A stretch of 64,000 nucleotides of DNA from Psammoneis japonica (lineage: Eukaryota), in NCBI GenBank assembly GCA_008632985.1, contig QPGO01000042.1, positions 434,001 to 498,000 of the forward strand, given 5' to 3'. The translations under genes were made by a program, and so were the position numbers. The notes under the pieces were generated by a model. It worked only from the letters and a program-made list of their open reading frames with translations. It was not told the origin of the DNA and searched no databases. The first letter of the stretch is position 1. Each line of letters starts with the position of its first letter. Shown one piece after another: positions 6,946 through 64,000 of this stretch.

Positions 6946-8108
6946 AAGAATTCCGCAACGCTTTTCATCGAAAGCGGGACGTAAATCTGTACATTCAGGG
7001 AGGCAAAGTCGTTTGGGAATTTGCATACAGTGCTCTCGTGATCCGTGCAATCAAAGATCATATCAAGGGAAGGGCTTGGAATCCCAGTTTGGGAAGCAAA
7101 GGATGTTGGACGAGTCCTCTGGAGAGTCTCCCCGACGCTATTGCCCTCTACGAGTTTATGGGCCGCAAAGTTGACGAAAAGATGAAGAAGCGAGCAGAAG
7201 AAATTGAACGTACTTTTGGTGGTACACGCGCTTCTGATGGAATCAAGCTCACCCTTCGACTTGCTCTGAAGCAAGAAGTCGATGAAAACCAGGTGAATTC
7301 ATTGGGCTCCATTGATGTCACATTTCTCTACGACGCGCAAGTCGTTTCTGCTATCAAGATGTTGTCACCATTGCAGCGCTCATTCGATCCTCCAACAAAG
7401 ACGTGGAAGGTGGATGTGCTAGCGCTTCCTGACTTCCTCGACCAGATGGAACCGCTTGGGTACAAAAGATCTACTCATCTTGCAGCGGTAGCACAAGCCT
7501 GCTCGGACCTGCAAAAGCTCATGAGTGACTCGCTTAAGTATTCGATGTTGGTCGAACCCGGTCTTGAGGACTACGAGCTAGTTGAGGACGAACCATTAGA
7601 ACCTGTCGCTGTTGAGGACCTTGAGGCGGCGCTCAAAAAGCTGCTTGTGCTGGTAGGCGACAAGTCTCACTCCGCTGGAAAGCTTGATCGGTCCGATTGT
7701 GGGGAAGCGAAAAGACGTCGCCTGTCATCCAATAGCTTTGTCGGTGGTTATTTCGGTGATTTTGACTCCTTTTCTTCGTTTGCCAGGAATCACGTTCGAC
7801 GGTCAAAGGGGAAAAGGTCGAGGGACTCAACCCCAGCCAATTGCGACTGCGGTCAGCCGTGGAAACAAGTTGGTGGGAGGCACGTGTGTCGTTACTTTGG
7901 AACGTTCCATTGTCCTTGTGGCAATCAGTGGACTAGTGCCTATTGTTGGAAGGGCGAAAAACAAGCTTGCAGGAACTGCGACACGGAGAGTCTTCCAGCC
8001 AAAATCGACCCGTTGGACGGACGCCCCCCGATGAACACAGCCGGCGGTCACCACGATTCGGCCAGATGCGCCATGTGCAAGAGACTCGGCTATGATTGCA
8101 GCCTTTAA
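6945..8108 (+). CDS. 5'-truncated protein with two HARP-like repeats and a C-terminal 3CxxC (ZAR1-like) zinc finger
   Basis: Frame is open from the repeat junction (KEFRNAFHRKRDVNLYIQGGKVVWEFAYSALVIRAIKDHIKGRAWNP) with no ATG. Second repeat TFLYDAQVVSAIKMLSPLQRSFDPPTKTWKV. C-terminus YFGTFHCPCGNQWTSAYCW..QACRNC..HHDSARCAMCKRLGYDC. Confidence 0.7.
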   Translation, partial: KEFRNAFHRKRDVNLYIQGGKVVWEFAYSALVIRAIKDHIKGRAWNPSLGSKGCWTSPLESLPDAIALYEFMGRKVDEKMKKRAEEIERTFGGTRASDGIKLTLRLALKQEVDENQVNSLGSIDVTFLYDAQVVSAIKMLSPLQRSFDPPTKTWKVDVLALPDFLDQMEPLGYKRSTHLAAVAQACSDLQKLMSDSLKYSMLVEPGLEDYELVEDEPLEPVAVEDLEAALKKLLVLVGDKSHSAGKLDRSDCGEAKRRRLSSNSFVGGYFGDFDSFSSFARNHVRRSKGKRSRDSTPANCDCGQPWKQVGGRHVCRYFGTFHCPCGNQWTSAYCWKGEKQACRNCDTESLPAKIDPLDGRPPMNTAGGHHDSARCAMCKRLGYDCSL

Positions 8109-13761: not shown

Positions 13762-14037
13762 TGATAGAAATTGAAGGCAAATGGCAAGAATTCAAACAAC
13801 AACTCCTTACTGCTGTCTAAATAGCAGATGAGTCTCCGCTCAGAGACCGTCACAGGAGCCGAAGGACATGTAAGTCGGTATAATCGGGCTACTGTCATTA
13901 TTCTTGTGAGCCTTGTGGCTCGAAAGCAAACTGCATCGCGCGTGAACGCGCGGAACTGAAGCACACAAAACTGTGCACGGCAAACCAAACAGCACTCGAT
14001 GCTTCGCGCGCACCTGAATCCTGCTCAAATCCTGTCA
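13762..14037 (-). repeat. Copia 3' LTR (276 bp)
   Basis: Aligns with 20595-20853 with 17 substitutions and one 17-bp indel. Confidence 0.95.
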
Positions 14038-14059
14038 CTCCCCAGTTTGCTTGAGGAGC

Positions 14060-17000: not shown

Positions 17001-19653
17001 TAGACTCGGTGCCAACAAACAGCTGGGGACTGGTGCAACCAGAGTCGACGGCCGGGGTGTCGGCACAAACGGTGTCAGTGGCGATGGGCTCGTTGCGGCG
17101 GTGCACATCAAGGGCGGGGTTGGGTGATTTGCAGGCCTTGCGAAGGTGTGCACCGGCGGGCATGCGGGCGCACTGCATGGTGCAGTCAAAAGTACGACGG
17201 ACCGTGTCGGCAGGTGGGAAGCCAAAGCAAGGCCGAAGAGACTCGAAGGGGGGGTCCTTGGGCTGCACAGTGCGCGCCGGAGGTGGAACATCATCGCCCT
17301 GGGGGCCAATCGCATGCAGATGACACTCGTGGAACACGTCGTCGTTCGGAATGAGGTGATCATCGAGGGCGGACGCGTGATCGGCAGACAAGGAAGCGGA
17401 CATGATGGTCTCGTTGACAACGACACGATGACGGCAGTTGCCGCATTCGTCAAACAGGTTGGCAGTGGGATCGTCCTGCAGGTCAGAGATCGCGTCGCAC
17501 CACTGGTCGTCGTCAGTGACAGAGTGATCAAGGACGGAAGGGTCCCATGTGTCATCACCGGTGAGGATGACATGGGGCAGGGTGTCCCATTCGGCGTCAG
17601 TGCAAGGTCGCATGGCAACACAAGGCAGGCCAGCCTTGATGTCAATGGGGATGACATAGCCATCAGGAGTGGCAACATGTTGCAAGCCGTTGGGCACCTT
17701 GACAGAGCGATCGTTGACATCCTGTTTGCACCATTCGAGCTGGCCGCAGGAATGGATGGTCTTGCCCTTGCCCGTGCATGCGCGCTGATGGAGCATGGCG
17801 ATGACGGGACCACGCTGGGTCTCAATGACGGCACCAGCGGTGACAATGGGGATGTCCACCAATTGATGATCGTCAATGCCCTGAACGTCGACTTGGCGAG
17901 AGGTGCGTGCAATGACGCGAACGTCGTCGCCAGCAATGCCGCCGTTGGCCCCACGATCGACTAGAGCGCCAGTGCGTGTGGAGCGATGAGCAGAAGCAGA
18001 GCAAATGACATTGTGGTTGTCAACGCGGCGGTGAGTGCGACCGTCAAGTTCTGTGTCATCTGCAGAAGCTGGCGGGGTAGAGGAAGCGGCGGATGGCCCC
18101 GGTCGACTGGCATTGGGGGCTTGGTTAGGAGACAACAGACGTTGCAGATCACCGGGTGGCAGTGGCTTGCGCTTGGTGAGGTGCGCCAGGATGGGATCAT
18201 CTGAAGTGGCGTCCACATGTGGAGCGGAGTCACCAGAGTCAGCAGGAGTCGTGTTGGACAAGTTGACATCACCGTCACTCCCAAGGCGTTGGTCGTGAAG
18301 GTTGGCCGCAACAGACTCATGGCAGTTGCTGGCTCGCGGGTTGCGGGGAGGTGGACGAGAATGCTCAAGGATGATCGCCTTGGAGGAATCGGGCAACGAA
18401 TCCCAGAGCCGTTGGTGGTCGGGAGGGAGACGTCTCCATTGGACACCGGTGAGGCTGGGACCACGGGTGCAGGCAGCATTGGCTTGAAGGACGTCAACGT
18501 CGCTGTCAATGTCGCAGAACACATCGTCGGACGGTTCCTCGGAGCAGACGTCGTGTGCACATGTGGCGCGTCGGGGAGCTCGAGGTGTCGTCTTGGGTTG
18601 AAACGTGCTGTCGTGCTGAGCTGCGGCGGAGAGGAGCAAGCCACAGCATTGATCGCATGTGAGGCTCTTGCCACTCTGCGCACGATGCTGATCAGCTTGG
18701 TTCTTGACAGCACGGAGTTCCTCGACAGGGTGCACGGCATTCTCGAGCATGACGCGCTTCTGTCCTTCAGAGAAGTGGTCACTGGCCGGGATGAGTGCCT
18801 CGTGCTTGCGCAACTGATCTTGCCAATGAAGGATGAACCCGTGGGTCGGACCTTTCCAAGTGCCATCACCAAGACGCGCGGTGGTGAGGTGCGTGAGCAG
18901 GGTGGAGGACTCGACAGATGCGCGGGTGGAGGCAAGCGCGTGCTCAGACAAGGAGCGGCAGACGGTCTGTGCGTCAGAAGACCCCACATTTTCGCGAATG
19001 AGAGCCTTGCCCTTGTCGGTGAGAAGGATGCGTTCGAAGACGGCGAACATGTGCTTTTGCTGTTCAGCAAAGAGCAGTTTGTCTTCGGGGCTGGTCGGTT
19101 CATACGACGAGTCTAGAATGCACTCGATGTCTTGGGCACGGGCTTGTGCCACAAGTGAGGTGTGCCAAGTGTGCCACTGCTTGTCGGATTTGAGAGCCGT
19201 GAAAGCGGTGGGATCACGCTTGATGCCTCGCTTGAAGTCCCACACCGGGTCGCGTGCCTTGGTCGGGTTGGTGACATGTGGAGGTGCAAGGGGTGAGCTG
19301 CCGATGGACACAGAAGACATGCAGTCGGGGCTGAGGCGGTGGGCAAGGAACTCGTCATGCGTGAACAAAGAGGAGTCATTGGCAACGTCAAGACCTTTGT
19401 GTGCTTTGACAATGTACAGACTGACTGATGCTGCTAACATGTTCTTGTAACCACGGGGCAAAGGGATTGCATTGGTGCCGTTGTCGCACTCAAGCGAGTC
19501 TGTTTGGGACGGCATGAACGTGAACAGTTCCTGACATGAGTCCATGCCGTCTTGGGCCAAAGCCAAATGAAGAGGACTCCCAGCACCTTGGGCAAGCACG
19601 GTTCCAACCACGTGCTCGAAACCATCGGTTTGTTGCTGACGAGTGAGAACCAT
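14060..19653 (-). pseudogene. Copia gag-pol polyprotein pseudogene
   Basis: PR LVDRGANGG; IN ..ISDRAQVE..QNFAERR; RT HLVCDMKHDGRHKA*, KALHGLRSSG, CVGD (for YVDD); RNase H DANL..TGRS..GSEFVAAR..FGDN..NPADILSKH. TGA (from CGA) at ~15532 and a frameshift at ~14140. Confidence 0.93.
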
Positions 19654-34179: not shown

Positions 34180-37100
34180 GCGGGAACTGTGCCACGCAAG
34201 CCAGCATGATTGTTTCTTTCTCTTTTTCTCCAGCAGGCATTTTCAACAAGAAGCATCTGTGTGCTCTGGTGTGGCGAGAAGAAGCAATTTCTTGAGACCA
34301 CAGTCGACACCAGCTGCACGTGGAACACAAGGGGTGTGCCCCCCAAGGCCTGCCAACCAGCAGCTCTTGAGTCTGTCCCCCTCTGCACGCAAGTGCCCAA
34401 AACACTCGCCTTTTTGCTTGGCCATCACAGCACTCCTCTCAGCCAGTCTTTTTGTTTGCAGCCAAGCCACAACAATGCAGTTCTTCATCATTCTTGTTGT
34501 GTCCACACAACCGTGCTGTGGCACCAATTGAGAAGGAGTGGCTCTGGCCAAAAGCAGGCCTCTGCCACCAACCAACTGCACTCAGCACTGTGGAGCCAGC
34601 TGTGTGCTGTTCAAAGCAGTGGCAGCTCTCTTGCAGAGTGGGGGGGAGATGATGCAAGGCCTGGCCTGTTGATCAGCTCTCAAGTCTGTCCACCTCCTGC
34701 AGACAGATCATGCCCAATGCTTGCTCTCTTCCTTGACCATCTCAGTGCTGCTTGAAGCAGCCATGACCCTTGTGGTTCTTGCAGCCAACGCAGTTGCTCC
34801 TTCTTGTTTTGTTGCACCAGCAACAATGACAAACAGGTGGCTGAAAGGACCCCAGCTGGTCCTCTGCTGACCAGCTCAATGGCTGGCAAACAAAGTCCAG
34901 ACTGCCTCAAGCCATGCTGGCAGGAAGTCTCTGCTGTGCACTTCATGCAACGCTTTTCCCCAAGCCCTGCCTGGCACTGGGTTGTGGCCAAAAAACATTT
35001 TTTGATCATGTGCTGCACAACAGCAACTTGCACTTCTGTGTGCCCTCTTGGACAACATTGCCTCACATGCTCTGTTTTCTGAGAAGGTGTCAAGCTCTCT
35101 GCACTGGCCATTCTCAGTGCTCAGTGACAGCTTCTGAGTTGGTTGTGTCTTGCAATGTCCAAGGAATTGTCAAGCATGGGTGCTCAAAAACAGCTGCATC
35201 AGATGCTTCACAGTTGGCTTTTCAGGCTGTGACAGGCCATGCTGTCCACAAGCTTGTGTCAAGAGGCAGCAGGAGCAAATCTTGCCACACTCAGCTGGCG
35301 CCAGATTGGCAAGTGCTGTTCAGCCTTGGATGCTTGGGATGATGCAGTTGAGTGATGAGGTTGTGCGCTGCAAGTCACACACAAATGATGCCATGAGGAG
35401 AGAGCACATTGAGAGGTTGCAGTCCATGGGGTGGTGTTTGTGTGAGTGGATTGCTTGAAACTGGTTGGACGTTGTGTCATTGCAGCTGCCACATGTTGCT
35501 GCTTAGTCTGCAGCAAAAGCACTGTGTCACACTGGTTGAGTTTGGGCACCTTGCTTGTGATTTGGTCATTTGCTGAAACACAAGAGAGTTTGTCATTGGA
35601 CAGGGAGAGAAAGAGAGAGAGAGAGTTGTTTGTTTGAGAGAGAGCTCATTCAAGAGAGTGCACTCTCAAGAGGAACAAAACTCTGCCCAGATGTGTTGCA
35701 CTTGTCAATTTTTGACATGTGCCAGTCAACATGCAGAGCTGGAATGGCAATGGCATTGGGTCTGTGTCACATTGAAGTTAGTCTGTGACATTCCTGTTGC
35801 ATCACAACTCTTTGTGTTAGATGCCCTGTGCTCTGCATTTTGCCAACCTGCCATGGCAGCCAAACTTTTCATGCAGCTGACCACACTGTTGTCACTTTTT
35901 ACTTCACAATCATCACTTTTGCTGTGCCCTTTTCAGAGGTGCATCACAAACAAATGTGCAGCTTGTCAAGCCTCATGTTTGGCATGCAAACACAAACCCA
36001 TGTGCAGGATTGTGTGCATGTGCCAACTCTGGTGTGTTGCACCACAAGGCAATCTCAAAGACCTGTCAAAACAGTGTGTGGCAACATGAGAAATGATGGT
36101 GACACAACAGCAGGCCATGATTTGAGACATGATCTTCCAGCTTGATGTTGGCTGCAGCATCATTTCTCCCATGTGCATCAGTGCCCCAAGATTGTTGCTT
36201 GTGTGTAAAACCAGCTTGTTCAGCTTTGGTCTTTGTTGTTTTGCTGTGGTTGCTGTTTGACCAGCTGGTTCAAGAGAAGTGTTGCTGCCACCAATGGTGC
36301 AGCCATGGTGTGGATTTCTTGCCAAGAGACCACTCAAAAGAGATCACTTTGATGAGCTGGCACAGCTCTCTCAGACAAAATGGTGTGAGCTTCTCTTTTT
36401 CATTTGCAGCTGACACATCCTCTGTTTTTGGCATGGTTTTGCACTCCTCAGCCCAGCAGCAAGTCAAGACTTGCAAGGCTCCAACTGCTTCACCAGCTCC
36501 AGCAGCGCAAATGCTTCAAAGCCACCACCAACTCCAGTGGCACATGGGCTCTGTTGGCCACTGCCAGCACTGGCAGAAAAGGCTCCAACTGCTGCCTCTT
36601 GCACCAGCAGCAAAGCTCTGACCACCACTGCTCTGCCAGCACAAAGGCACTCACTGCCACCTGCACCAGCAGCACAAAAGCTCTGGCTGATGCCAGCCAA
36701 CACCAGCAGCACACAAATGTTCCAAGTGCTGCCAGTGTGCTGGCAGCAAAAAAGCTCTCTCCAACTGCTGTGAGTGCCAGTGGCACAAAACCTCCAACTG
36801 CTGCCAGCACCATCAACAAAAGGGTTCTCCAACCACCACCAGCACCTGCAGCACAAAGGCTCCAATCACCACCAGCGCCAGTGGCACAAATCCTCCAACA
36901 AGCAAAAATGCCAGAGGGGACAAGAACTCTTGGGGGGAAACTGTGTGGCAGGGTCTGTCTGCACAATGGCTTCTGCTGGTGTGCTGGCAGCAGTGTGGTG
37001 ACAGATGAGTGCACAAAATGTGTGCAGGAACCATTGCCCTTGCAGGCATGCTCTTCCTCTGTGATTCTCTTCATGCGGCAGGGCCTGTGGTGCATGCCAG

Positions 37101-40100
37101 GGGTGACAACCAACTTGATTGACCCGCCCATGCTGCATGTCTGCTGCTGCCAAAAAATCACCAACTCTGGGGAGGAACCTGGAAAAGCAACCCTGGCACT
37201 CTCATCTGAACCTGGCACCACAGGTGCCCCATGTGTCACTGACTTGGCTCAAGTTCAAAATTTCCAACAACTTTGCCTGGTGGTTTTTGTCAACTTAAAA
37301 ATTTTGAGCAGAATTTTTTCAGAATTTTTTCAGAATTCCTCACTGCAAACTGCACATCATGGCAAATCATCTGATGGAGCGTGCAGAAGTTTGTTGCACA
37401 ATCTTGAGAACAGCCCTTGCAAAGTCAAATGTCCAAGTTTTTTGCAGTGCTTGCATTTTCACTTTGACCCAATGAATGAAATGACATGTTGGTGTTTGTT
37501 TGTGAAGGTCACAAAAATTGACCTCTGACTTTGTTCTCAATTTGTTTGGCCCATTGCCTGGGTGCCCATGATGACAAGACCACCACTTTGTGTCAATCAG
37601 CTGTCATTTGGTGAACATGGCAGTGATGAAAAAACAGAAGCTGAAGACACCATGCATTTGACAAAACAGAAAATGTTTTGTGTGCAACAACAAACAATTG
37701 AGAAAGATTTTGTCATGGTGAGACATGTTTGACACAATGCAGCAATGTCAACTTGTTGCTGGTGGCTGGCACAGGAGGATGGCCAAGGGGCAATGAGGCC
37801 TTGGAGACTGAACCACCAGCGCATGCCCAGAGTTGTCAGCAACATTTGACAAAGTTCATTGCACACTCTGTTGACATGCAGTGGCAACAAAGGTGCATGC
37901 TCCAAGAAAGAGATTTGGCACAAGCTGACTCAACAGTCTGCTGTTGTGTTTTTCCTGAAAGTGACAACAGTCTTTTGTTTGCATTGTTGTGTGCTTTGCC
38001 CCCACGACACCTGTGATCTGACATTCACCATCTGTGTGCGTCAAGTGACCTTGTGATGGTGCAAGCAGTTTTGACAGGAGGGTTGAGCTCCTGCATTTGA
38101 CAGATGTCCTTTGAGAGATTGACAAATGAGCTTCACATTCATTGCTTTTGGACTTGAAAAAAGGCCTGCCACACTGTTCCATGGGTTCAGACGCAATTTG
38201 AGCTGCAGGTTGGAGAGAAGCCAGCTCCCTGTTGTTGCCCTCAGCAATGCACACGGGTGTGCCATTCACAGCCTTCTCATGGAAACATCAACAAAAAGAA
38301 AGCTCCTGCCTTTGTCTTTGCTCAAGCATGCAGCAGCACAGCATGAGCAAGCTGAGCAGCACTGCCACAGCACTGTTTTGACAGCATTGCTCCTTGGGAG
38401 AAGATTGCTCATTTTCATTTGTCATTCTCAGGTCTTCAGCCACAAGCACATCTCTCACTCTTGAGAAGAAAAAACTGGGCTCTTGCAGCAGCTGCTGGCT
38501 GCCATGCACCTGCTCTTGCAGTGCAAAGGATTCCCAAGTCATGTTTGCAATGGATTAGATCATGGTGCAGTGTGGTGCACAATTGGTGGAACAGCTCACA
38601 ATGGGCAAAGTGCAGTGAGGAACAGAGTTTGGCACACATGCATGCCAGAACAATGTCGTGCACCCCCATTGCTTTCAAGCCAGCTCACACTGGTCAGCAT
38701 CACACACAATGACCCATCTTTCCTGCCACAGTCATTTCCAACAGAGCAAAATCAAGAGGTGTGGGGCTTGCTCCACTCTTCTCCATTTTGTGGCACCTCT
38801 TGCATCTCTTCCATTTTCAACCACCTGACTGCAATGCAATCCAGTCATCATTGGGGCCAAGAACCGCTGCTTTCCTCCAATCCATTTTCTTGATTTTAAG
38901 GAGGAAAAACAGTGGGAGAGCACAATTGGGGATGTGGCACTTTGGGCTGGAGCTCCTTCAAGCATTCCTGCAGCTGGTGCACAAACCCAATGGTTGAAAG
39001 CTGTGGTGCTGGTCACAACTGGCTCTTGACTCAAGCTGGCAGGCAGCAGGCAAAAGTGTGGAAGATGTTGGTGATGAAAGAAGTGGCTGAAAAACTGTGT
39101 TCTGCAGAGAGTGTGGCACGAGCAGAAGTTGGGAATGGCACCTTTTCAGCAAAGGTTTTACAGAGAATGGCAGATGTTTTGCAACTGCGCATGCAAGACA
39201 TGGTGGCAAAACATGCCACCATTGATGGTGGTGCTGTGGAAGAGGAGACAAGCACACATCCAGTTTGATGAAAGGTTGGCAGTTGGAGGGTGATGCTCAC
39301 AACTGGAGCAATGTGGTGCATGTTTGCAATGTCAAGCTGCAGGCACATTGATTGAATGGCTGCAAGAAAAGTGTCTGGGATGTTTGTCCAGCAGACAAGG
39401 AAGAATCTTGCTGCAGCTGTGGCAACCACATGCAACTGCTTGTTTTGTCACAGTGCAAAGCTGCTTGTTGTTGTCTCAAGGAAGGCTGCAGCAGTTGCAC
39501 TGAGAGCAAACACCTCCAGTCTGACTGTGGCATTGGGAGTGTGCAAAGTCTGCCAGAGAGCTGCTGTGGATTCCCAAGTTGTGCAATGCAGATGTGCCAC
39601 ATCATGTGTGCAGGATGGATGCAAGCCTTCTGCTGCTGCAGGGTCAAGAAGGAAATTTTCAACTGCAGCAGCCTGGCCAGAAAATTTCAGAGATGGTGAC
39701 AACAGAGCCAATGATGGCCACCAGCATGGCAAAAACTGTGGCACAAACTGGCAATGCTGCCATGACAAGAATGATCTGCTTGAAAATGAAAAAAAAAATG
39801 GAGAGCAGTTTCTTGGCTGTTGGGAGTGGCTTTCAGCTCATCAAACAAGGCTGTCATGACAAAGCAGAGCTTGGTGACCTTTGCAGCCAAGTTGGCCACT
39901 CTGCATCATCAAGTCAAGCAACAGCCCCTTGTGCAGAACAAATGTTGTTTTTGATTGTGCTTTTCTGTCAACACAGGTGCTGGTCCCAACCCCAAAGCAA
40001 TTGCTGTGGACAACAACAGCTTGTGTGTGGCTTTCCAAAAAAAGCACCAAGAGACAAAAGCAGCTGAAAGAAAGCAAAGTGACTGACAATGTTGTTTTTG

Positions 40101-42940
40101 AACTCATGGACAAACACTGTCATTGAGCAGAGAGGAAACAAACCACAAATGCAGGGTGGATGAAGGCTCAGAACTGCAGCTCATTGAGTGCAAGATTCAC
40201 TGGTTTCCTGGTCATCTTCAACGAGTGCAGCAGGTGTCTGGCTTTGCAAAGATTCAAGTTGCTTGGAGTGAGGATGCAAAGAATTTTTTGCTGAGAGTCA
40301 TGGCAACCAACTGCCATCTTCTTGCTGTCCATGATTGTCAAGCAGCCAATGCTTTCAAAAACATTTGGGGCTGCCTGTCAGCTCCTGCCACCTCAAATGA
40401 CATTGTGTGTCAATGGGATGAAGCAGCTCAACATTTCTTTTGTGCAGCACCAGCCAAATTGTGCCAAACACATGAATGCCATCATTGCATGTTTTGTTTG
40501 ACAACAGCTCCTGAAACTGCTTGCAAATCTTCTTGAGGAGCAGACACACTTGTTGCTCTCCATTCCTTGCTCTTTCTTCAACATCAACTTGGGAAACAAG
40601 AAGTGGTGCTCTGCAAAGCTCGCCCATTGTTTTCTTCTCAAGGAGAGCAAGAGAGAGCAAGAGAGAGCTGCAGCAAGAGCCAAGAGAAAAGCAGCATGTT
40701 GTGCCATCCCTCTTGACTTTGGAAAAGCCAGAAAGTTGCCCACCTTTTACTCTGTCAGTGAAATCATGCCATTTGACTGTGCCCAAAACAACCACAAAAA
40801 TTGCACCAACACAGAAACCAACCTGACATGGCCAAACACTTTTCAAGCCACCTTTGCTCAACATTGCAAAATGATGCTGCTGGGTCATGTGCACAGAAGC
40901 AACCAAAGTTGACTCAGCTGCTGCCACAAAGAAAAACAAAAGTGCAACAGCTTGCTCATCTGCCCCAAGTGCTTCTCTTGCAGCTCTTCTTGTTTTTGGC
41001 ACATGGTCTTTGCCGTGACCAAGCCACTCCAAGCTGCTTTGCAAACAGCGCACCTCAGAAACTGTGCCACACAAACAAGCTTTGGAGTGGTGTGGAGTCC
41101 CCCCTGGGTGCCTGCTCAAAAGTCTTCTTTGAACCTGTGTCTCTGGAACTTCAGAAGGCCATGTGCCAAAGAAAGATGCTTCAGCAACAACAAAGGCTTG
41201 CAACTGCAAAATTAAAGTGCAAAATCTAGCTCTCAGATGACAACTCCATTCCCTGTGGAACAAGGAAAGGATTCAAAGCTCTGGCCCATTGTGAGCCTTT
41301 TGCCTTGCCCCCCTTTCCCCCAACCTGCCAAAAATGGGTTGAAGCACTCAAGTCTTCCTGTTGCCAGGGAGCAGAGCAACAATCAAGTCCCTTGGCTCCA
41401 CCCAGCTGCTGCTTGCAAACATCAAAAAAAGCCTTCTGTGCTCAGATGGCTTGTCAAACAAAACTTGGCACATGCTCCTCATCTGTCTGACACTGGAGAT
41501 GCAACATGACTGCACACCTTCCTGCCCCTGCTCTTGTCACAACAACATTTTTTCCACCAGAGCACTCAGCAGATGCAGCCTCACAACATTGCAGAGCCTG
41601 ACAATTCTGCCATTCTCAGAAGCCGAGGCTGGATGTTCTCTGCCATGTTCTGTTCTTGTTGTTGACCCTTTTGCTCTTGCTGATGACAAGCAGTGCTTTT
41701 GTCAATGACCCACCTGTGTGTTGCACATTTGCAAACAAGACAGCAAGGCCAGCTCCCCACCTTGATGTCTTTAAAGGCTGCAATGATGTCCACTCAGATG
41801 TCTGAGCCTGTTTTTTCTTCTTGTCTTTGTCCTTCCCCCCACATCTGCTTGCATTGCATGGTGCTTGCTGCACTGCACACACCACATGCTCTTTTGCATT
41901 TTCCACACTGCAAAATGGCCAGATGTTGTCTGCACATTCCAGCATTGCTCGGTGTTTGAGGCATCCAGCTTTTCAATTTTATCCTCTTGCGCCAGATGGC
42001 CAGCCTTCTTGGCCCCTTCAGCTTGACTCCACCTGCATTTCTTCTTCAGTGCCACTGCCTCAGCAACTTTGCACTTTCCTCAACATTTCTTCTCACAATG
42101 GCAGCTCTGGCATCACACCACCCGCCAAAAGAGCTGGCACAAATGCACCATTGCACCCCAGACTTTTCCAAAGCACACACAGCTCCTGCTGTTGTTCCCC
42201 AAGACCATGCAAAACCACCTGCCAATGTCTCACCTGAATTGTTGCCAAAGAAAAGAAAGGAAATGTGGGTTGCACACTCCTTGTCATGCTTGAGTTCACC
42301 AAGAAATGCAAAACAATGGAGCTGGGCCACCGTCGTCACCGCCGTTTCCATTTCACTGCCACTGCTGCTGCCATCATGGCTCATGATGACAGCCATGTGC
42401 ACATGAAACAACTGCAAAGAAAACCTCAGTCTTCCTGGCAATGGCATGCTGTTTGTCAATCTGGAGCAACATCAGCCACTGGGTTTGAACCCAGCAGAAG
42501 AGCTTCTCTCTTTTTCCTGTCGAGAGAAAACAACAAAAATGGCAAGTTTTGTTCTGGCAGCCACAACCACCAGCCTCACAGTTGCATCATTTGCAAGTGA
42601 GCTTCTATCCACCAGCCAATGTCACTGGACATTTCAATCAAACACTTTTTCCCACCTCCACAGCACATGTGAGGCGGGCCAGCTGATGATGTCCTCAAGG
42701 ACACCGGCGAGCACCGATGTGGTGCCCCCCCCCCCCCAATGTCATGCACGGCACATGGAATTCAGTTGAAGATGATCTGTGTGCACCAATGAGTGGCACT
42801 GCAGCAATTTTTGACACATTCGAAAAAATCATGCTGTGTGTCACATGTTGCGCCGCATGGTTGGGGAGAAGTGAGAAGTGGTTTGATGCAATGCAGCCAA
42901 GCACAGTGCAACAAGACTGTGGCACAGAAAGTGGCACCGT
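34180..42940. other. 8.7-kb degenerate block almost devoid of TA and strongly depleted of CG
   Basis: Only about 15 TA seen by eye; saturated with TG/CA; no recognisable intact gene. Confidence 0.85.
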
Positions 42941-54759: not shown

Positions 54760-55087
54760 TTTCAAATCTCTTCTTCTTTCGCAAAGGTGCCTACCGTATT
54801 CGGTGTGTTTTTCTTGTTCTTTGTTCTTGCCTCTGTCTCTTGTTTCTTGTTTGTTTTTGGATGGATGGAAGTTTCACAAGTTTCAAATAATGCTCTCTCT
54901 TTTCGTGGCCGCGCGAGCGTTTCGTAGCCGTCCGTAACATTTCTACACAGATGACGTCTGCACGTACGTACGCCGTACGTACACCTTATCTTCGCGCGAA
55001 CGCAAGATTTCAGCATGCTCACGTCCCCGCTCCCCGCTCCCCGCCCCCGACAATGATAGCAAAAATCAACCCCGCATCGTTGTGACA

Positions 55088-57766
55088 ATGCCGCGGTTCG
55101 GGCCACCGTTAGACTTCTCTCCTCCAGAAACAACTCCTCCGATAAGGACACCACTGCAAGCTCGGTCACACCTAGAGCGAGTTGATGAAAGTGTGTGCTT
55201 GTCGTGCCTATCTCCTGATGGCAGGTCAGTGCACTCGCTGTCATTCCAGCGAGGTTCTGACGCAGTCATTGAATCCCATAGTCTTCCCCTTCTTGGGACG
55301 ACTGCTGATCAGCAGCGTACTGAGAGAGAAGTTCCTGTCGTCGTAAGAACTACGCTACCCCAGGTGGTGCAGTCGACATTGGCCCTGGAACCACCTTTGG
55401 AACTAATTTGCGTCGATGGCGATTCTCCCAGTCCCAGTCCGCATCGCGACCCATACGATCTATCTGACAGCGCGTCATTGCAACCAACGGCAAGCAGGAG
55501 ACATCTACCCCTTCTATGCTTGTACACACGCAAGTCTGTCTATCTATTGCAATTCGCGTTTGCAGAGAAGTCCTCATACGATCCAAGCTCGCCTGTGCAG
55601 GGTGAAGTGATTTCTGTGACTGAACCCTTTGAATCTTACTTGTTGGACGCATCATCTTCGACGGATATCATTCGTATCCGTCCCGCACCGCAAAGGCGAA
55701 TGGGATTCGCAACTATGTGTCCACCTGGGTCGATGGCAATGTTGACTTCTGAGCATGCCTTGGTGCTATACCATGGACCACGAGGAAAGAGGCGAGACGA
55801 GGCTCGTGTGACGAAGCCGCTTACCTTTGGGTTGGAAGAACTTGCAGACGGGGAAAACTTGATTACCGACTTTGTGTTTTGTCAGTCAACAGAACTGCCT
55901 CTGCTGTCTTCTATTTCGGTGCTGCTCTTGAAGGCATCAGGAGCTGTTCTTGGAGCAAGCGGCGTTTTGTTTCATGGGGCCGTTGTTCCCCGTACACTTG
56001 TGCAGGAGAGTGTCCACTTTCTGGAAAGTGAAGTAGAGCGTCTTGAAGACCCAGCTCTCGCAAAATGGCGACAGTGCAAAGCGGCTCTGCGGCTCCTGGA
56101 GAATGCCTTTGGCCAACCAGACACTCCGGCAACACGAAAAGGTCATTTTGTGGAAGCTCATGTGCAATCGCGTGGGAGTGTTGAAGACGCAACCACGTGG
56201 CCGATTCAGCTTCAAGGCCCCCTTTTGACTCCATCCGATCCAAACTCAGACGACTCTTTTAATGATGCCATGATCATTGAAAACATATTCTCCAAGGGAC
56301 TGGTGGGAATAGTCATTGGCAGAGCTAACGGTGCTGTCGACTTTGCCGTTATATCTCCGACTTCCCTTTTACCACGCTTCGAATTCGAGGACGAAGAAGA
56401 TCAAGTTGCCCTTGATGATTCCCTCTTTGACTCTGGAGTTGTTCTGGAGAGAGTGAGTGTGCAGCCTGACGACAACGAGACGAGTGGATCTCTTGGCAAG
56501 CCTGGTCTAATACAGGACCTGGTAGTGGATTCCATGGTGCATTTCGTGTCAAGGAACGGCGTGGCTACCATATCAACCAACGCCATGTACGTCGCGAGTA
56601 ACAAAGTGCGACTCCATGCCGAGGGGACCGAAGCAGGGGATAGTCGCGGCTTTCTGTCGCCACCAACCTCAGGATCAAAGCCGGTGGAGGAGCAGGTGAA
56701 AACTTCCGCATGGTGGAGCGCACAAGTTTCTCCTACAGGCGTATCAGGACGAGCTCGTTTGGTAGGAGCAGTTGTGAGTGGGGATGTTCAGTTTGGACAC
56801 GTCCTTTTGGTGAGGCTTTCAAATGGTAAGGATTAATTCACGTCGATAGTAATGTTTTGTCGCTGCTTGGTTCTCATCTTTCTCGCCTTGTTGCTGTTAG
56901 GATCGATGGATGCAATAAGTTTAACTGAATCAAGACTTCTTCATGAATCATCAACTTCCATTTTCCATGAAGAATCGGTACCGCAAACGGCAAGCCGCGA
57001 AGTCGCAGCCGCCGAGGAGGCTCTAGATGCTGTGAACGCGACACGTCCGCTTGTCGACCTCATCGATCCGTTGGTCAAACAAGTTGTTGACGGCGTTTCT
57101 GGCATGGGAAAGATTGTTGGTGGGGAAACAGCTCCTCATGACATCACCCCCGTCGAACTAGCAATGGCCATCTCTGTGATAGAGAGTTGTGAGAACAATA
57201 TCGTGCTCCCGATGAACGAGTTGAACCAAATCACTGCTCGACGCATGGAGGCTCTTCGCGAGATTCACGAGAATCAGGTGGTACAGATTGAGCATTTGAA
57301 GGACATGGTTCGAATACTCAAGGAGAGAATGGCTTCGACAGAGGAGAAGCTGAGGAAGGCCAAATCAACAGCCGCTAATTTATCTGAAAGGAGTAGTGGG
57401 GTCTTGGAAGCGAGCCATGCCATGCAACCCACCGTAACGGACGCCGAGCTCGACTACTTCGCTTACATCAAGCGACTCGATGGCAAATGCGCCGAGTGGG
57501 AGAAAAAGAGCAAGGCACTGGAAGACTCCTGTGCTAACTTTTGCGACTCGTTAGACCCGGGTAAATCAAAGTTTCTTGTTGAGCTACCCAATGACCAAAT
57601 TACCAACTGTCACGCTTTGTTGAATGGTCAAGCCATCCTGCTCGAGAGAGAAGGAACTGCGCTCAAGGAGACCAAGGCGAATCTACAGGAATTTGCCGCA
57701 ACGGCCGGTCTCGGCATTCTTGAGGAAGCCACTTCAGATGAACAGTTGTATGGTAGTGTGCAGTGA
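55088..57766 (+). CDS. Probable nucleoporin Nup88/Nup82-like protein (2 exons, intron 56826-56900)
   Basis: Beta-rich N-terminal region plus C-terminal coiled coil; GTAAG..TAG intron joins the ORFs in frame. Family assignment rests on architecture only. Confidence 0.55.
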
Positions 57767-57801
57767 TCGACCACGACGAACACTAATCTTAGTTGACGTT
57801 T

Positions 57802-58470
57802 CTATAACAATGTATCAAGGGGTAATAAATACTGTCGGAACTCGCCATCCGCCAATTCGACCTGAAAATACACCCCGCGATAGTTTCCATCATATGGCTC
57901 TAAAAGTGCATCACCCGGCTTCCAAAGAGCATCAAAACCCAATCCACTTTTTCGTATCTCTGCAAAAGTCAAGGATCCTCCCGTATTGTACTTAATATAC
58001 ACACCGCCGTCAATTTCAATAGGAATACCGTCCTTGTCTAAGCCATGAAGTAGTCCACGGGGGAGTTGCAGTTCTGTCACCCAAGATTTTAGCGTATTCA
58101 CTCCTTCTTCTGCACTGGAAGCGCATATACCTAGCATACATCTTCCTTTTGTTGAATCGGCAAGGCGTTCGTTCTCGGCAGCCCTACACAGCTGTCGCAC
58201 AGCATCCGGTATCCTTGAGCGGTCTTTATCTAACTTCTGTTTCTCCGTATCCCTTGACGCAACATCAGAATTGTACTTCTGGTCCCAATCTAGAAGTAAT
58301 CGCGAGGCTTCCTTCACGCCAACGACGCCTGGCACTTCGGGTTCCCCCGCCCGAGACGCAGACCGAAAACTTTCACGACGATGTACAATCTTACACCAAA
58401 TCGAAACAGAAAAGGCGTCTGAGACACCAAATAATATACACAAAACAGTAAAGTACTCACTGAAGCGCAT
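57802..58470 (-). CDS. Hypothetical protein, likely plastid-targeted
   Basis: Signal peptide ending VSDA|FSV (ASAFAP-like), then an Arg/Ser-rich transit-like stretch. Confidence 0.7.
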   Translation of the reverse strand: MRFSEYFTVLCILFGVSDAFSVSIWCKIVHRRESFRSASRAGEPEVPGVVGVKEASRLLLDWDQKYNSDVASRDTEKQKLDKDRSRIPDAVRQLCRAAENERLADSTKGRCMLGICASSAEEGVNTLKSWVTELQLPRGLLHGLDKDGIPIEIDGGVYIKYNTGGSLTFAEIRKSGLGFDALWKPGDALLEPYDGNYRGVYFQVELADGEFRQYLLPLDTLL

Positions 58471-58857
58471 CGTTGAAAGTAGTTGCGTGGAGACGACTAT
58501 CTTGAGTCTACCCGCCGTCTTGGGTGGTGATGTCGTACTAACTACGTGTGTCGTGTCCCGAAATCAGCGGTCCGGGCGCAGCGGGGTACCGTAACTTACA
58601 TGCCGGTACTGCAGGGTCCGGGCGGTCGGTAGCTGCAGTAACCTTACATGAAAAAAGTTTGATTTTTCTCATAAAATGACAAAAATCTACTTTACCCACC
58701 GCAGACAGATGTGACTTTTGTCAGTTTGGAGTTTTTCGGTGGCAATGCAGCACCGTGCCGGCACGAAATCGAGCTTCTTTCTCACCAAAACTTTTGCCGT
58801 TCAGTTTGCTGTCATTTTTCATGTTTGCAGCAAGAAGCAAGTGATCCCGATTCAACC

Positions 58858-59430
58858 ATGTTGGTCCATCAGCAAGAAGAGATGCCGAGTTCAAGCTCAT
58901 CTTCGTTGGCATTGTGACGCTGGTGAGAAGACCCTCTTGAGCCATTGCTCTCATTGCTGAGACGGAGAAGGAGAAGAAGTGTGTCACGAGTTTGGGTGCG
59001 GAAGTCCTTCCGCTTGCTTTCAACACAAACCACAGTCCAATCAAGTTCAATGTTTGGATGACAAATGGCCAGGAGAAGTTCGGAGGCCTCTGCGCTGACC
59101 GCATCTGCTTGCAGGGCCAGAGTGCGCGCCGCCATGATGTTTGACGTGACGTCCCCTGTGAAACGTCCAAGAATGTGCCCAACTGGTGCCAGGATCTCAT
59201 GCGCATCTGCAAGAACATCCTGATCATTCTCATTGGAAACAAGGTTGAGATCAAGGATTGCAAGGTCAAGGCCAAGCAGATCACCCGCTGCACTGTGACA
59301 TCTCTTCCGAGACAGGCTTTGACTGTGAGAAGCCCTTCCTCTGTCTTGCTTGCAAGCTTCGTGGTGATGCACAGCTTCAGTTCATCAACAAGCTTGCTCT
59401 TCAACACCTCCAAAGCCTGGCAATCCTGGC
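58858..59430 (+). pseudogene. RAN: Ran GTPase pseudogene, copy 1
   Basis: [83 protein letters not shown]; frameshifted. Confidence 0.9.
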
Positions 59431-59438
59431 TCAACTGC

Positions 59439-59996
59439 GTGTTGGTCCACCAGCAAGAGATGCCCGAGTTCAAGCTCATTTTCATCTGGGCTGTGACCAC
59501 GACATCGGCAGAACACCCCCTTGAACCATCACTTGACAGATGAGTCCATGAAGGAGAAGAATTTTGTCATGAGTTTGGGTGTGGAAGTTCTTCTGCTTGC
59601 TTTCTGTGTGAGCTGCAGCCCAGTCAATCAAGTTCAATGTTTCGGAGGCCTCCGTGATGGCATCTGCATGCAGGGCCAGTGAGCCATCATGATGTTTGAT
59701 GTGACATCCTGTGAAATGTCCAAGAACATGCCCAACTGGTGCTGGGATCTCACGCACGTCTGCAAGAATGTGCCGATCGTTCTCATCAGAAACAAGGTCA
59801 AGATCAAAGATCACAAGGTCAAGGCCAAGCAGATCACCTGCCACTGCAAGAAGAGCCTCCAGCACCATGACATCTCTGCTGAGATGGGCTCCAACTGTGA
59901 GAAGCCCTTCCTCTGTCTTGCTTGCAAGCTTCACGGTGTGACACACAGCTTCAGTTCATCAACAAGCTCACTCTTCAGCCTCCGAAGCCTCCAACT
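59439..59996 (+). pseudogene. RAN: Ran GTPase pseudogene, copy 2 (tandem)
   Basis: [77 protein letters not shown]. Confidence 0.9.
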
Positions 59997-60485
59997 GGAG
60001 AAAACAATCACAGTGAGCTTCAGACGCTCAGCGGGGATCTCGCAGCAAGTGTCGCCGGCAATGCAGGGAAGAAGCTCAGATGGTTTTCATTGTGTTGACC
60101 CTGGAGTCAGTCACAGATCAACGGAAAACGACAAAGACAAAATGGAAAATCTGTTTGGTCAAACCAGCTTGTGCGCACATTTTGGTCTGTTGTGTCACAT
60201 GCCTTGACTGCGCTGGACATGCAATGCATGTGGTGTTTTGTTTGCAAAGTGGTGCCGGCATGTGCTGTTGCTGAGTTTGCACAAGGCTGGGCAGGCTTCA
60301 TTGTGTGCCAAGCAATGCACAAGAAGTTCGTGCAAGCAATGGTTTTCCATGGCATTTGACAATGTCACCCTCCTCCTCGTTGTTGACATTTGTGGACCAG
60401 ACTTGCTTGTTCTTGTTGCTGTGGATCACAAGCCACCTGTGCTGTGCATGACGCATGACATCACTTCATCCAACATGCTGCTGTT

Positions 60486-60884
60486 GACACGTTCCAGCTC
60501 TAGGTGGGACCTCGTGCTGCTGAACTGTGACATCAACAGTTTTTTGGATCGCGTCGCATGTCGCGCGCGCACATTTCTGCGTGTGACATTCTACAAAATT
60601 GTTTCTGTGCTCCCTGTTTTGCGAAGCCAAAGGCTTTCTATTTTCAACATTTGTGAGAATGAAAATGTGCTGGGTGTGTTCTTTAATGTCTGAAGAACAC
60701 ACCCGGGCAAACTGTCAATGATGGTGCTGCAAGCACGAAGGAGGAGATGCGTTCATGAAATTGCCTCTTTTTCTGTTGGCAATCATCCACATTTTCATTG
60801 CAGCACAAATTTACTGCGGAGCTCGCATGTAGAATTCTACGGGCCCAATGTCACATGGAGTCCCACCCAGGACTGGAACCCGTC
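60486..60884 (-). mobile_element. ~399-bp MITE, same family as 269-665, with 4-bp TSD TGTT
   Basis: TGTT|GACACGTTCCAGCTCTAGGTGGGAC ... GTCCCACCCAGGACTGGAACCCGTC|TGTT. Confidence 0.85.
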
Positions 60885-61876
60885 TGTTGCAGCATTCGAG
60901 TCAACTCCGAAGCCATCCCTTGTCGAGTGCATTTCAACATCGTCCCACTTCACTCTGTGGAAACTTGTGTGTGTCAAAGATGTTGATGCATCATTTGCAG
61001 TGGGAACAGCAAGAGGAACATTGTTGCTCTTTCTCTTGCTTGGAGATGAATTCTCGTCCTTCTTGTTCTCTTGCACACCACGACAGACGCTGCAGTCGCT
61101 GCCAAGCAACATGAGCGAGCTGCAGCAGCACCAGCACCAAAACACAAGTCCATCAATTGCATCATTGCTTTAACATCAACACCGATGCAATGGTCTTCTT
61201 CATCGGCAACCGTTGTAGAAAATTCGACACACCCAGATCATCGTCGGCATCGGACATCGGAAACTTTGAGAAATGAGTCGCCCCGAGCTTTTCTCGTGGT
61301 TTTCATCACCAGATGAGTTCATCAGGTCAAAATGACAATGACCCTTTTCTGATCAGCCAGAACAATCCACCAGCTCAATGCTGGATGGAGACGATGGACG
61401 TTGGCAATCTCCACAGAGTTGTGCTGTTGCATCAGGAAGGGATGAGATGATTGAGGATCTATCTGCGACGGACGGACGTGGACGACCGACCGTGGGCGGG
61501 CGGGCGGGCACGCAACGCACGTGGCTGCGGGAGCGAGCGAGCATTTTGCTCGAGTGAGTAAATGATGCGAAGCATCAAGGTGGCTGGTTCGTTTTTCGTT
61601 CTACACACTCTTGACACACTCTACTGTATGCTATTCGACACCACATACCACCGCTCATCGCATACAAACCAGTTCTGCCGTAATATCCCTCTTTGCCGAA
61701 CCTCTCTTCTTTTCCCTTTGATATTGGATGGCACGTGTACCTATCAGAATTTCGTATGTAGTTCCCGACCGTGACCGCCTCGATCTCAACTCAAATTACA
61801 AGCAAGAGCTGCTGACTGCTGACTGCTGACCGCAGCCTCACTCTTTCCAATCCTTGATACGAATCGTTACCCCATA

Positions 61877-63538
61877 ATGGATCGTAAACACAAAGATGAT
61901 ACAGGAAATGACGTGTGCGAGAGTGGCAACTTCGAATTTTCCGACCAAGACGTTCAAGATTCATGCAGGGACGACGAGGAAGAAGCGCCGGAATCAAAGG
62001 AGAAAAGCAACGGATGCTGCAAGGGAACCTTTGCTTACGAGGGAAACAAAGACGCATTAGGATTGGCTATCGACGCCGTTCCCGACGGTGTCGTCAACGT
62101 CGGAGCTGCGGTCTTTTTGAGCAGCGCTCTTTTACATCTTGCCCGTGAAGCGGCAGGTTGTACAAACGAAATTCCAGAAGGCCAAGACGATGTGCCCGAA
62201 TGCAATGGAAGGGTTTACGGCATTCGTCCTTCTTCCTTACTTACCATCTATGTTACTGTCATTGGATTCATTGCGTCTTTCTTGATGCCCTTGATAGGTT
62301 CTGTCATGGATCACACGAATCGTCGTAGGCTCGTTGGAAGAGTTTCCGTGGGCTTTATGACTTTGATAACTCTATTTCAGTGTTTTGTGGGAGAAAAGAC
62401 GTGGTTCCCGATCGCAATTCTTCAGGTTGTCTTTGCCTTCTTTACGTTTGTTCACATGTGTGTGACTTACGCTTACCTTCCAGAAATCACAGACGACAAA
62501 GACAAGCTCATGAACTACACTTCAGGATTTAATATCATTAACAATGCAGCCATGGTTCTTTTCATCCTTGGGATTATTGCTGTTGCAACTTCTACTGGAA
62601 TTTCCAATGACCCAGTCAAGACAGCTAGGGTTTCTCAATCTACAGCCTTTTTTCTTTGCCTGGTATGCTGGGGCTATTCATGGAGTCGCCTCATTTCCGC
62701 AAGGCGAGCCTCACAGGAACTCGAACCAGGAGAATCTGCTTTATTCAAGGGCTTCAAACATGTTGTTCAGACTTCTAAGCTTATTGCAAGAAGCAAGGAC
62801 ATGGTTGCAATAAAATGGTTCTTAGTTTCACACTCCTTCTCGAATGCCGCGGCACTAGCTTTGGCTGCCACGTCCATTACATACCTTACCGAGGAGATGC
62901 AGTTTGAGTCGACCGAGGTTGGAATCGCTGTATTGATCATGTTCACGTCGGCAATCCCTGGTAGCAAGCTGGCGGTAGTGCTCTCCCGAAAACTGAATCC
63001 CGTTAGAAGCCTTCTCGCTTGTTTGAGTGTTTGGGTCGCAAACACTTGCATCATGGCTGGGGTACTATCAGGTCCTGGACAGCAGGTCCCTGCGTACGTT
63101 TTCTCTTCCATCTGGGGGGTTGCAGCAGGCTGGAAATTTCCAACCGAGAAAGTACTTTACTGCGCAATTATTCCAAATGGCCAGGACGCCGAGCTTATGG
63201 GAATTCATGTGTTTGCAGCTCAGGCACTTACCTGGCTTCCTCCGTTGATTGTCACGGCAATGAATGAAGCAGGAGTCAGTCTTAGGATTGGCTTGTTTTC
63301 TTTGTCGGCGTACTTCTTGTTGAGCATTGGCTTTGTGTTGCTAATGGGCAACTACAAAGCCGCTGTTGCTGCCGGTAAGGAACAGAGAGCTCATCGTTCT
63401 CGCGCTGAAACTGCCATATCTCAAGAGAGCAAGTTAGACTCAGATCATTACATACGAGGCAGTGTCTACATTGAGTCTTCTCCAGAGGAGAATGACGATG
63501 ATTCAGTTGCAGAATTGTCGAGTGATGAAAACGCTTAG
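61877..63538 (+). CDS. MFS transporter, ATG22/UMF1-like
   Basis: About 12 hydrophobic segments; FLMPLIGSVMDHTNRRR, YAYLPEI, IIPNGQDAELMG. Confidence 0.85.
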   Translation: MDRKHKDDTGNDVCESGNFEFSDQDVQDSCRDDEEEAPESKEKSNGCCKGTFAYEGNKDALGLAIDAVPDGVVNVGAAVFLSSALLHLAREAAGCTNEIPEGQDDVPECNGRVYGIRPSSLLTIYVTVIGFIASFLMPLIGSVMDHTNRRRLVGRVSVGFMTLITLFQCFVGEKTWFPIAILQVVFAFFTFVHMCVTYAYLPEITDDKDKLMNYTSGFNIINNAAMVLFILGIIAVATSTGISNDPVKTARVSQSTAFFLCLVCWGYSWSRLISARRASQELEPGESALFKGFKHVVQTSKLIARSKDMVAIKWFLVSHSFSNAAALALAATSITYLTEEMQFESTEVGIAVLIMFTSAIPGSKLAVVLSRKLNPVRSLLACLSVWVANTCIMAGVLSGPGQQVPAYVFSSIWGVAAGWKFPTEKVLYCAIIPNGQDAELMGIHVFAAQALTWLPPLIVTAMNEAGVSLRIGLFSLSAYFLLSIGFVLLMGNYKAAVAAGKEQRAHRSRAETAISQESKLDSDHYIRGSVYIESSPEENDDDSVAELSSDENA

Positions 63539-64000
63539 AGTGTGTTTGCCACTTCTCGACGTATCACGGGTCACATGCTCCCGAGCGTTGCACACTCAAG
63601 TTCGTTTATTAAGAAATAACTAAGTGCGGTTTAACTCATGCACTTTTCCATCTGACGCGTCTTGGAATGAATCTCTTTCATTCCTTCCATCTGAAATGGA
63701 TTGTGGGCGCAACTTTGTGTCGACTTTCTCTGACCAGAGAGCCTAAAAACGCGTATGTACACATTACATACTAGTAGTCTTCCCACAGACTGTTTCCACA
63801 TGCCATATCCATTTTGACGAAATGGTCTATTTGAATTGCTCGACAAGAAACTTATCGCTAAGAAGCTTATCGTATGGCCGCAACTTTCCCCGACAACTTT
63901 CTGCTTATCCCCATGATGACAGAACTTCAAACTGCTTCAATAGTCCACCAAAGAATTTTCCTATGCTGCAACACCACCTCCTGACTGATCAGTGACTGTT

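Follow-up and report, generated by a model that had tools for sequence, protein, structure and literature searches.

Why should two neighbouring copies of a near-invariant host gene have lost every TA step, and does the cause lie in their having been duplicated or in the place where they sit? The question is raised by a window of 64,000 nucleotides, the whole stretch of DNA analysed here (positions 434001-498000 of contig C40 in genome G000; this label and others such as C2, C15 and C21 denote contigs of one 91-Mb assembly). A preliminary description of the window had reported tandem Ran pseudogenes with a common mutation signature, and had proposed that the process behind it also strikes duplicates that are not transposons, in the manner of RIP, and might limit gene duplication. 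RIP hits both partners of a duplication and blocks new paralogs; it requires a RID-type methyltransferase and acts premeiotically. Matches to the chlorophyll-binding antenna (LHC) family number at least 82 in the genome, and for one of them the best match is to chlorophyll a/c proteins; the alga is provisionally called diatom-like.

A TpA-erased block between two divergent genes

TA content takes two states across the window, with observed/expected ratios (o/e) of ~0.5-1.1 in genes and ~0 in blocks; 50 of the 128 bins of 500 bp that make up the whole window hold four TA or fewer. The block that contains the Ran copies (58694..61460) lies between two divergent genes and is TpA-erased, CpG-poor and rich in CA and TG. 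Its limits are sharp and agree with the ~58.7-61.5 kb given earlier: no TA occurs between 58694 and 60500 (~1.8 kb), where ~65 would be expected from the flank density (P ~4e-29), and the right end falls at ~61460. For 58694-60489 the dinucleotide o/e values are 0.00 for TA, 0.47 for CG, 1.73 for CA and 1.69 for TG.

Both flanking genes are TA-normal and turn their 5' ends towards the block. The left one encodes a 222-aa DUF1824 protein (57802..58470, minus strand) and the right one a 553-aa ATG22/MFS transporter (61877..63538, plus strand). TA o/e is 0.56 in the left flank (55000-58512) and 0.57 in the right flank, and the spacers adjoining these genes are TA-rich. Contigs of run X2 lie over the flanking genes (55034-58512 and 61638-63593), and no long X2 contig was found over the block; X2 is labelled 'DNA?' and one of its contigs skips a GT..AG stretch, and we take this coverage pattern as no evidence on expression of the block. 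Among TA-poor blocks of the window CG loss differs, with CG o/e of 0.03-0.1 at 35000-42000 versus 0.8-0.96 at 14000-19000; TA loss and CG loss are therefore separable.

Two Ran pseudogenes have lost TA and CG independently

The two Ran-derived copies reported earlier are present (58858-60023), head to tail and 83% alike, each with 79-80% DNA identity to the intact parent Ran on C15, an intronless gene of 216 aa (E 8e-117 to a solved Ran, PDB 1i2m). Psi1 (58858..~59417, plus strand) is frameshifted, and psi2 (59439..60023, plus strand) has a 25-bp deletion across the DTAGQ (G3) box and a former stop TAG that now reads CAG; between them the copies are disabled by frameshifts, stops and the G3-box deletion. 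Run X1 has the bases missing at three 1-bp gaps near the psi1 start, which are possible assembly errors; other indels remain. One-base gaps relative to run X1 at full depth were seen at 55043 (also in X2), 58511, 58884, 58910 and 58948; these are probably assembly errors, and some frameshifts of this assembly may be false. Downstream of psi2 lies the 3' flank of Ran (60024..60211, plus strand), which is common to the C21 and C77 copies described below; as the copies carry flanks, they arose by DNA-level duplication.

Alignment to the functional gene, the check that had been proposed, gives a spectrum with TA and CG loss far above background. From C15 to psi1, none of 12 TA is kept, 8 having become CA or TG by transition (transition p 2e-6), and 10 of 48 CG are kept, against 172/209 control steps. 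From C15 to psi2 with its 3' flank, none of 17 TA is kept (12 transitions to CA or TG, p 7e-9) and 13/61 CG survive, against 208/251 control steps. Control retention is thus 82-83%. Sites near gaps were excluded from these counts; the TA counts per copy are small, and about a third of the TA losses (4/12 in psi1, 5/17 in psi2) are transversions or doubtful alignments. 5-Methylcytosine deaminates, turning CpG into TpG or CpA, and the excess of CpG losses by transition (30/48 in psi1, 36/61 in psi2) is as such deamination predicts. The parent itself is spared, with TA o/e of 0.50 and CG o/e of 1.17.

The direction of change is fixed at the 7 Tyr codons covered, since all 21 outgroup Ran genes used, the closest among 80 fetched, have TA there; neither psi1 nor psi2 has TA at any of them. 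These outgroups share only 73-82% DNA identity, and their use for polarising third positions was dropped as too distant. Codon by codon, the earlier examples fare unevenly. The motifs NWCQDL (59181-59198), NWCWDL (59734-59751) and LQHHDIS (59857-59877) were all found, as was a 13-residue motif (59893-59931), for which psi1 has D rather than N at 59321. Tyr>Cys/His by TA loss is correct for Tyr146, which went from TAT to TGT in psi1 and to CAT in psi2, but not for several other quoted residues. The C of NWC derives from CAC in the parent (His, also His in human Ran) through a double change, CA>TG; for NCE, the C reflects TTT (Phe) > TGT, a change seen also in the unaffected C21 copy; the C of FLC stands against TGG (Trp) in the parent and would be a TA loss only if the ancestor had TAT, as C21 does; and the first H of LQHH is also present in C21. 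The parent thus has no TA at three of the quoted sites (His, Phe and Trp), a finding that was to have counted against the idea, but the whole spectrum stands. The proposed Arg changes by CG loss have clean cases in Arg105 (CGC>CAG/TGG) and Arg165 (CGC>TGC). This mutation may have killed the copies or may have followed their death.

Two further Ran relatives occur in the genome: C21 carries an open frame of 175 codons, and C77 a 3' fragment. The C21 frame (L003:1496-2022, that is G000:C21:383390-383917, minus strand) is 70% identical to Ran and is truncated, missing the acidic tail and two residues of the G3 box; its two deletions are in frame and the original stop is re-used. Its dN/dS of 1.16, versus 0.025-0.13 for three Ran orthologues (a fourth was saturated), indicates that it is under no amino-acid constraint. 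Its TA o/e (0.52) and CG o/e (1.23) are nonetheless near those of the parent, its surroundings are TA-normal, and it keeps TA at 4 of the 7 Tyr codons. Judged by its sequence, it would be a young pseudogene or a fast-evolving paralog, like the Ran duplicates of Drosophila, where Ran has reportedly been duplicated recurrently and the duplicates evolve fast. C21 and the window copies have in common derived codons, the 3' flank and a junction to C106-like sequence, and therefore come from one ancestral duplicate. The C21 frame is the key control, the same gene of the same descent, spared at another location. Some early TA loss in C21 is possible: 5/14 TA of C15 are now CA or TG there (p 0.016; reverse 2/14), although 3 of the 5 are third-position sites variable among orthologues.

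These relatives also date the erasure relative to the doubling. Six TA steps are present in C15 and C21 and aligned in both window copies; opposite resolutions account for 3 of them, the two copies never share a transition, and the other 3 are transversions or in doubtful alignment. Of the 35 corresponding CG steps, 8 changed in opposite directions, 7 in the same direction, 13 in one copy only and 5 otherwise, and 2 were kept. Shared sites resolved in opposite directions mean that erasure came mostly after the tandem doubling and proceeded independently in each copy.

Transposon ends and a further host fragment within the block

On the left the block is bounded by MITE-A, an inverted-repeat element of ~360 bp of which the terminal ~88 bp lie here (58659..58746, plus strand); it has 8 other copies at 76-83% and terminal inverted repeats. 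Its outer end faces the Ran copies, which are therefore its neighbours and not its cargo. That the Ran copies are transposon cargo was rejected on this orientation and because no matching end was found in 58500-61700; a larger decayed element around them is conceivable. The other MITE-A copies (L022-L029) keep TA and often lie at the edge of or inside TA-poor DNA, and two of them (L025 and L028) have a further insertion of ~500 bp.

To the right of the Ran flank lies a C106-like segment (60204..61030), which is split by a second element; C106 itself is TA-poor, and the Ran/C106 junction recurs at C21. The second element, the high-copy MITE-B (60486..60885, ~400 bp, with terminal inverted repeats), has 7 TA versus 26 in a young copy, so that it either inserted when erasure was largely complete or continues to lose TA. 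We discarded MITE-B as the cause of erasure: it still has those 7 TA where the Ran copies have lost all, and one (L020) of 14 MITE-B copies fetched is in TA-normal DNA with normal flanks. The others are in TA-poor DNA, a distribution that fits either seeding or preferred insertion.

Last in the block comes a piece of an unrelated host gene of C73, from its 5' part (61021..61400, minus strand, no Pfam match). None of its 12 TA is kept, 10 having gone by transition, and the C73 original is TA-normal. This fragment occurs only once in the block; its single partner is unlinked and spared. The earlier view that non-transposon duplicates are struck is thus borne out to the extent that host-gene DNA is hit (the two Ran copies, the C73 fragment and a Rab5-like copy described below), and is qualified by the setting of the Ran copies, in a block that begins at a MITE end and has another MITE inside.

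Specificity for TpA and the fate of other duplicates

The adenine changes concentrate at TpA. In 13 eroded MITE-B copies, which are not independent, A>G is found at 214/615 TpA sites versus 13/1505 ApA/GpA sites; the corresponding figures are 35/82 versus 11/301 for the Rab5 and C73 pairs together and 21/58 versus 20/320 for Ran. A second context, CpA/TpG, was tried and rejected, single CA>CG changes not being enriched (9/698 versus 11/1505, p 0.23; Ran p 1.0). The Rab5-like copy lies on C2 in a TA-poor domain and keeps 4/30 TA, the other 26 being now CA or TG, whereas its intact parent is normal. Strand-coordinated tracts were sought in the 27 events of this copy and none was seen (13 runs versus 14.3 expected); repeated rounds would blur them.

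It might be argued that no special TA process is needed, and that these are old pseudogenes shaped by codon bias, noise in the alignments and CpG decay of the usual kind. The Ran copies are, after all, ~20% diverged, several of the examples first quoted were not TA loss, and the coding DNA of this genome is already TA-poor (o/e ~0.5). But CpG decay makes TG and CA and cannot remove TA; the 1.8 kb without a single TA is far beyond chance; all 26 changed TA of the Rab5-like copy are transitions, against 12/307 control steps; and the sister of the Ran copies, of like age, is normal. These results refute the account, which we regard as extremely improbable.

Duplicates outside such blocks fare differently. 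A broken Rab11 copy on C11, in TA-normal DNA, keeps 27/36 TA, and a tandem on C77, 96% identical, keeps 41/56; linked pairs of 92-96% identity keep 73-87% of their TA. Intact pairs include histone H3 on C43 (98.7% identical, 18 and 17 TA) and a tandem of LHC genes on C259 (97.7% identical, 18 and 21 TA). The linked duplicates of C11 (L050:2714-3657 and 6489-7422) and C77 (L051/L052), both in TA-normal DNA, do show a mild one-sided excess of TA>CA/TG, at 11/56 steps in the C77 tandem (p 1e-6; reverse 4/50) and 8/36 in the C11 Rab11 pair (p 0.004; reverse 2/33), and from the C15 downstream region to C77, 10/33 TA went to CA or TG. This excess outside blocks means that the process is not strictly all-or-none; it could reflect activity at an early stage or at an edge, and of the remaining evidence it speaks most for a pairing effect.

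Five of the 22 histone-fold matches lie in TA-poor DNA, and 4 of those 5 have a stop. These matches in TA-erased DNA (L195-L199, on C201, C92, C177, C203 and C10) include three that are 91-97% alike with long common flanks, and perhaps are histone genes carried by a repeated element. For the best 30 of the 82 LHC matches, a best-scoring set biased to intact genes, the flanks are TA-normal.

Allele differences are concentrated in the block

Comparison of X1 contigs with the assembly, X1 being possibly the source sample of the assembly, gave at least 33 differing sites, among those listed, in 2,372 unique bases of the block (4 rows inside a MITE were left out), against 2 differences in 6,234 bp of flank. 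The block is thus ~38-fold denser (odds 38), a figure to be read as an upper guide, since the flanks are largely coding, where selection lowers diversity, and contigs collapse bubbles. Merging four adjacent pairs leaves 29 events: 16 interchanges of CG with TG or CA, 4 CA/TG double changes, 1 of TA with CA, 6 other transitions and 2 transversions. CG, TA, CA or TG steps account for 21 of the 27 transition events. Present activity in the block is thereby seen mainly at CpG steps, with TA/CA interchange in only 1/29.

Fifteen of the sites could be polarised by eye with other copies, giving ~6 CG losses and 4 gains of CG from CA or TG. The gains, in the assembly from ancestral CA/TG, are at 59131, 59439, 60032 and 60054, and the one at 59439 makes the psi2 start codon GTG; the four may reflect weak A:T>G:C activity outside TpA.

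Duplication, silence or position

Could homology itself be the trigger? Under a RIP-like pairing mechanism, homology, above all between linked duplicates, would mark DNA for mutation and limit gene duplication, and a RID/DNMT4-like enzyme could do the marking. The decay of the Ran copies after their tandem doubling and the mild TA excess of the linked duplicates on C77 and C11 speak for this, as do the intact DNMT1/DNMT4-type frames of this genome, given that diatom DNMT4 may be related to RID (PMC9998398, in the portion accessible). Against it, the C15 parent and C21 are spared though 85% alike over 550 bp, and the C73 fragment, a lone copy in its block, is fully erased while its sole partner is untouched. 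The H3 and LHC pairs and the linked pairs at 92-96% identity tell the same story, and the direction of change is opposite to that of RIP; no strand runs were seen, although repeated rounds would hide these. For unlinked copies we consider a pairing trigger largely refuted, and overall quite unlikely. The earlier comparison with RIP fails on these same grounds, that is the reversed direction at TA and the sparing of parent, C21 sister and C73 partner. Nor does the suggested constraint on gene duplication find any evidence in general, paralogs 97.7-98.7% identical on single contigs being intact with ordinary TA.

If a mutator attacked whatever DNA goes untranscribed, and genes were shielded by transcription or its repair together with selection, neither a transposon nor a repressive mark would be needed. 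Such a mutator would be in keeping with block edges ~180 bp from the ends of the X2 contigs that cover the flanking genes, and with the mild TA excess in duplicates outside blocks. However, C21 is free of amino-acid constraint and yet has normal TA and CG (transcription of C21 is the weak point of this argument), the broken Rab11 copy on C11 keeps most of its TA, the spacers beside genes are TA-rich, and TA content is sharply two-state. This we find unlikely.

Taken together, the comparisons suggest that the process strikes by chromosomal location rather than because a gene was duplicated, and the best reading, which we think probable, is a TpA mutator limited by position and accompanied by CpG decay, in a silent island next to ends of transposons. 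A duplicate of C15 Ran would have given rise to a sister group of copies, those of C21, C77 and the window locus. The window copy, in a small island between divergent genes and beside transposon ends, would then have doubled in tandem. Within the island TpA would be turned into TpG or CpA (A:T>G:C) nearly to completion, and CpG into TpG or CpA more slowly, each copy being hit independently and whatever the origin of the DNA. The island would be silent heterochromatin, probably methylated and probably seeded by the transposon ends, and its CpG loss would come from 5-methylcytosine deamination.

Candidate enzymes

The chemistry of TA loss may well be adenine deamination by a TadA/ADAT2-type enzyme, to which we give just under an even chance; thymine oxidation by a TET/JBP-type enzyme with mispairing is possible, error-prone repair coupled to methylated chromatin less probable, and some other chemistry unlikely. 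TadA/ADAT2-type tRNA editors are universal, and the genome has deaminase frames of this type (MafB19/TadA; L060 and L063). It also has several C5 methyltransferases, with three intact DNMT1/DNMT4-type frames (L068, L069 and L075). These deaminases and methyltransferases are candidates for a part in the process by their presence in the genome. The DNMT1/DNMT4-like set is expanded; L072-L074 are TA-erased, and some copies lie inside TA-erased DNA (C301 and C297). A search for PF12851 (TET/JBP) gave 0 matches in the genome, as did its control, and is hence uninformative. A frame on C79 (L062:313-1785, minus strand) combines a zinc deaminase domain with a 2OG-Fe(II) oxygenase and probably serves nucleotide metabolism.

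More tentatively, and with the balance of probability against it, we put forward a wider idea: diatom-like algae would have a heterochromatin-guided A:T>G:C editor that erases TpA from any DNA in silent islands, host genes included, so that the landing site of a duplicate sets its fate (position-dependent pseudogenisation). Once TpA is exhausted, the editor may act more weakly at CpA/TpG, for which the four CG gains among the allele differences are the only hint, and marking could be by a RID-related DNMT4, making the system linked to RIP in origin and opposite in outcome.

Comparison with known systems

The locus is a real instance of a barely described mutator, acting on host DNA and guided by position, and it is not RIP. 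Its value lies in the Ran set, in which a near-invariant gene, an intact parent, a spared sister and two independently eroded copies separate foreignness, duplication and position; the set favours position over the other two as trigger, and the targeting question becomes directly testable. It also suggests a natural, undescribed activity that edits adenine or thymine in DNA, and warns that ordinary clocks are unfit for dating pseudogenes and repeats in such genomes.

Known Ran duplicates resemble this set in that several derived copies exist; here flanks are carried along and the window copies are dead. No relevant report of a TpA process in diatoms, stramenopiles or host pseudogenes was met in the literature searched, in which subscription papers were mostly outside reach. 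Within that literature and its accessible portions, the only published case of TpA-specific A:T>G:C hypermutation concerns viral inserts in a single rhizarian alga.

RIP of Neurospora crassa, as far as the accessible part of its account goes, is a C>T process that follows duplication (65% identity, 100 bp) and leaves one-strand clusters (PMC7296669). The likeness is in dense transitions confined to repeat-rich DNA and in host duplicates that can be hit. RIP, however, raises TpA by its C>T changes, whereas TpA is removed here, and here the parent, the sister and near-identical paralogs are spared.

In diatoms, the accessible text on Phaeodactylum tricornutum describes CG methylation of transposons by DNMT5, and gives DNMT4 as possibly RID-related and of unknown role (PMC9998398). 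DNMT5-type methylation with deamination would account for CpG loss in silent repeat-linked chromatin, but not for TpA removal.

The closest parallel is in Bigelowiella natans, for which a preprint, in its accessible part, reports hypermutation restricted to TpA in integrated DNA of NCLDVs and virophages (Mettrop et al., bioRxiv 10.64898/2026.01.13.699255); it reads this as defence against foreign DNA, proposes but does not show an ADAT2-type deaminase, and gives a de novo rate raised ~1000-fold in some lines only. One target region there is single-copy and silent, so that no pairing would be needed; the supplements of the preprint may list host-derived targets. As far as that part of the preprint goes, both systems have TpA>TpG/CpA transitions confined to regions, with clusters poor in TpA and rich in CpA and TpG. 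Ours differs in its host, a chlorophyll a/c alga that is probably diatom-like, in targets that include MITE-flanked copies of host genes and not only foreign DNA, and in erasure that is complete in 3-kb islands between genes with strong CpG loss alongside. For the Bigelowiella rate the only proxy here is the 38-fold excess of allele differences in the block, mostly of the CpG class.
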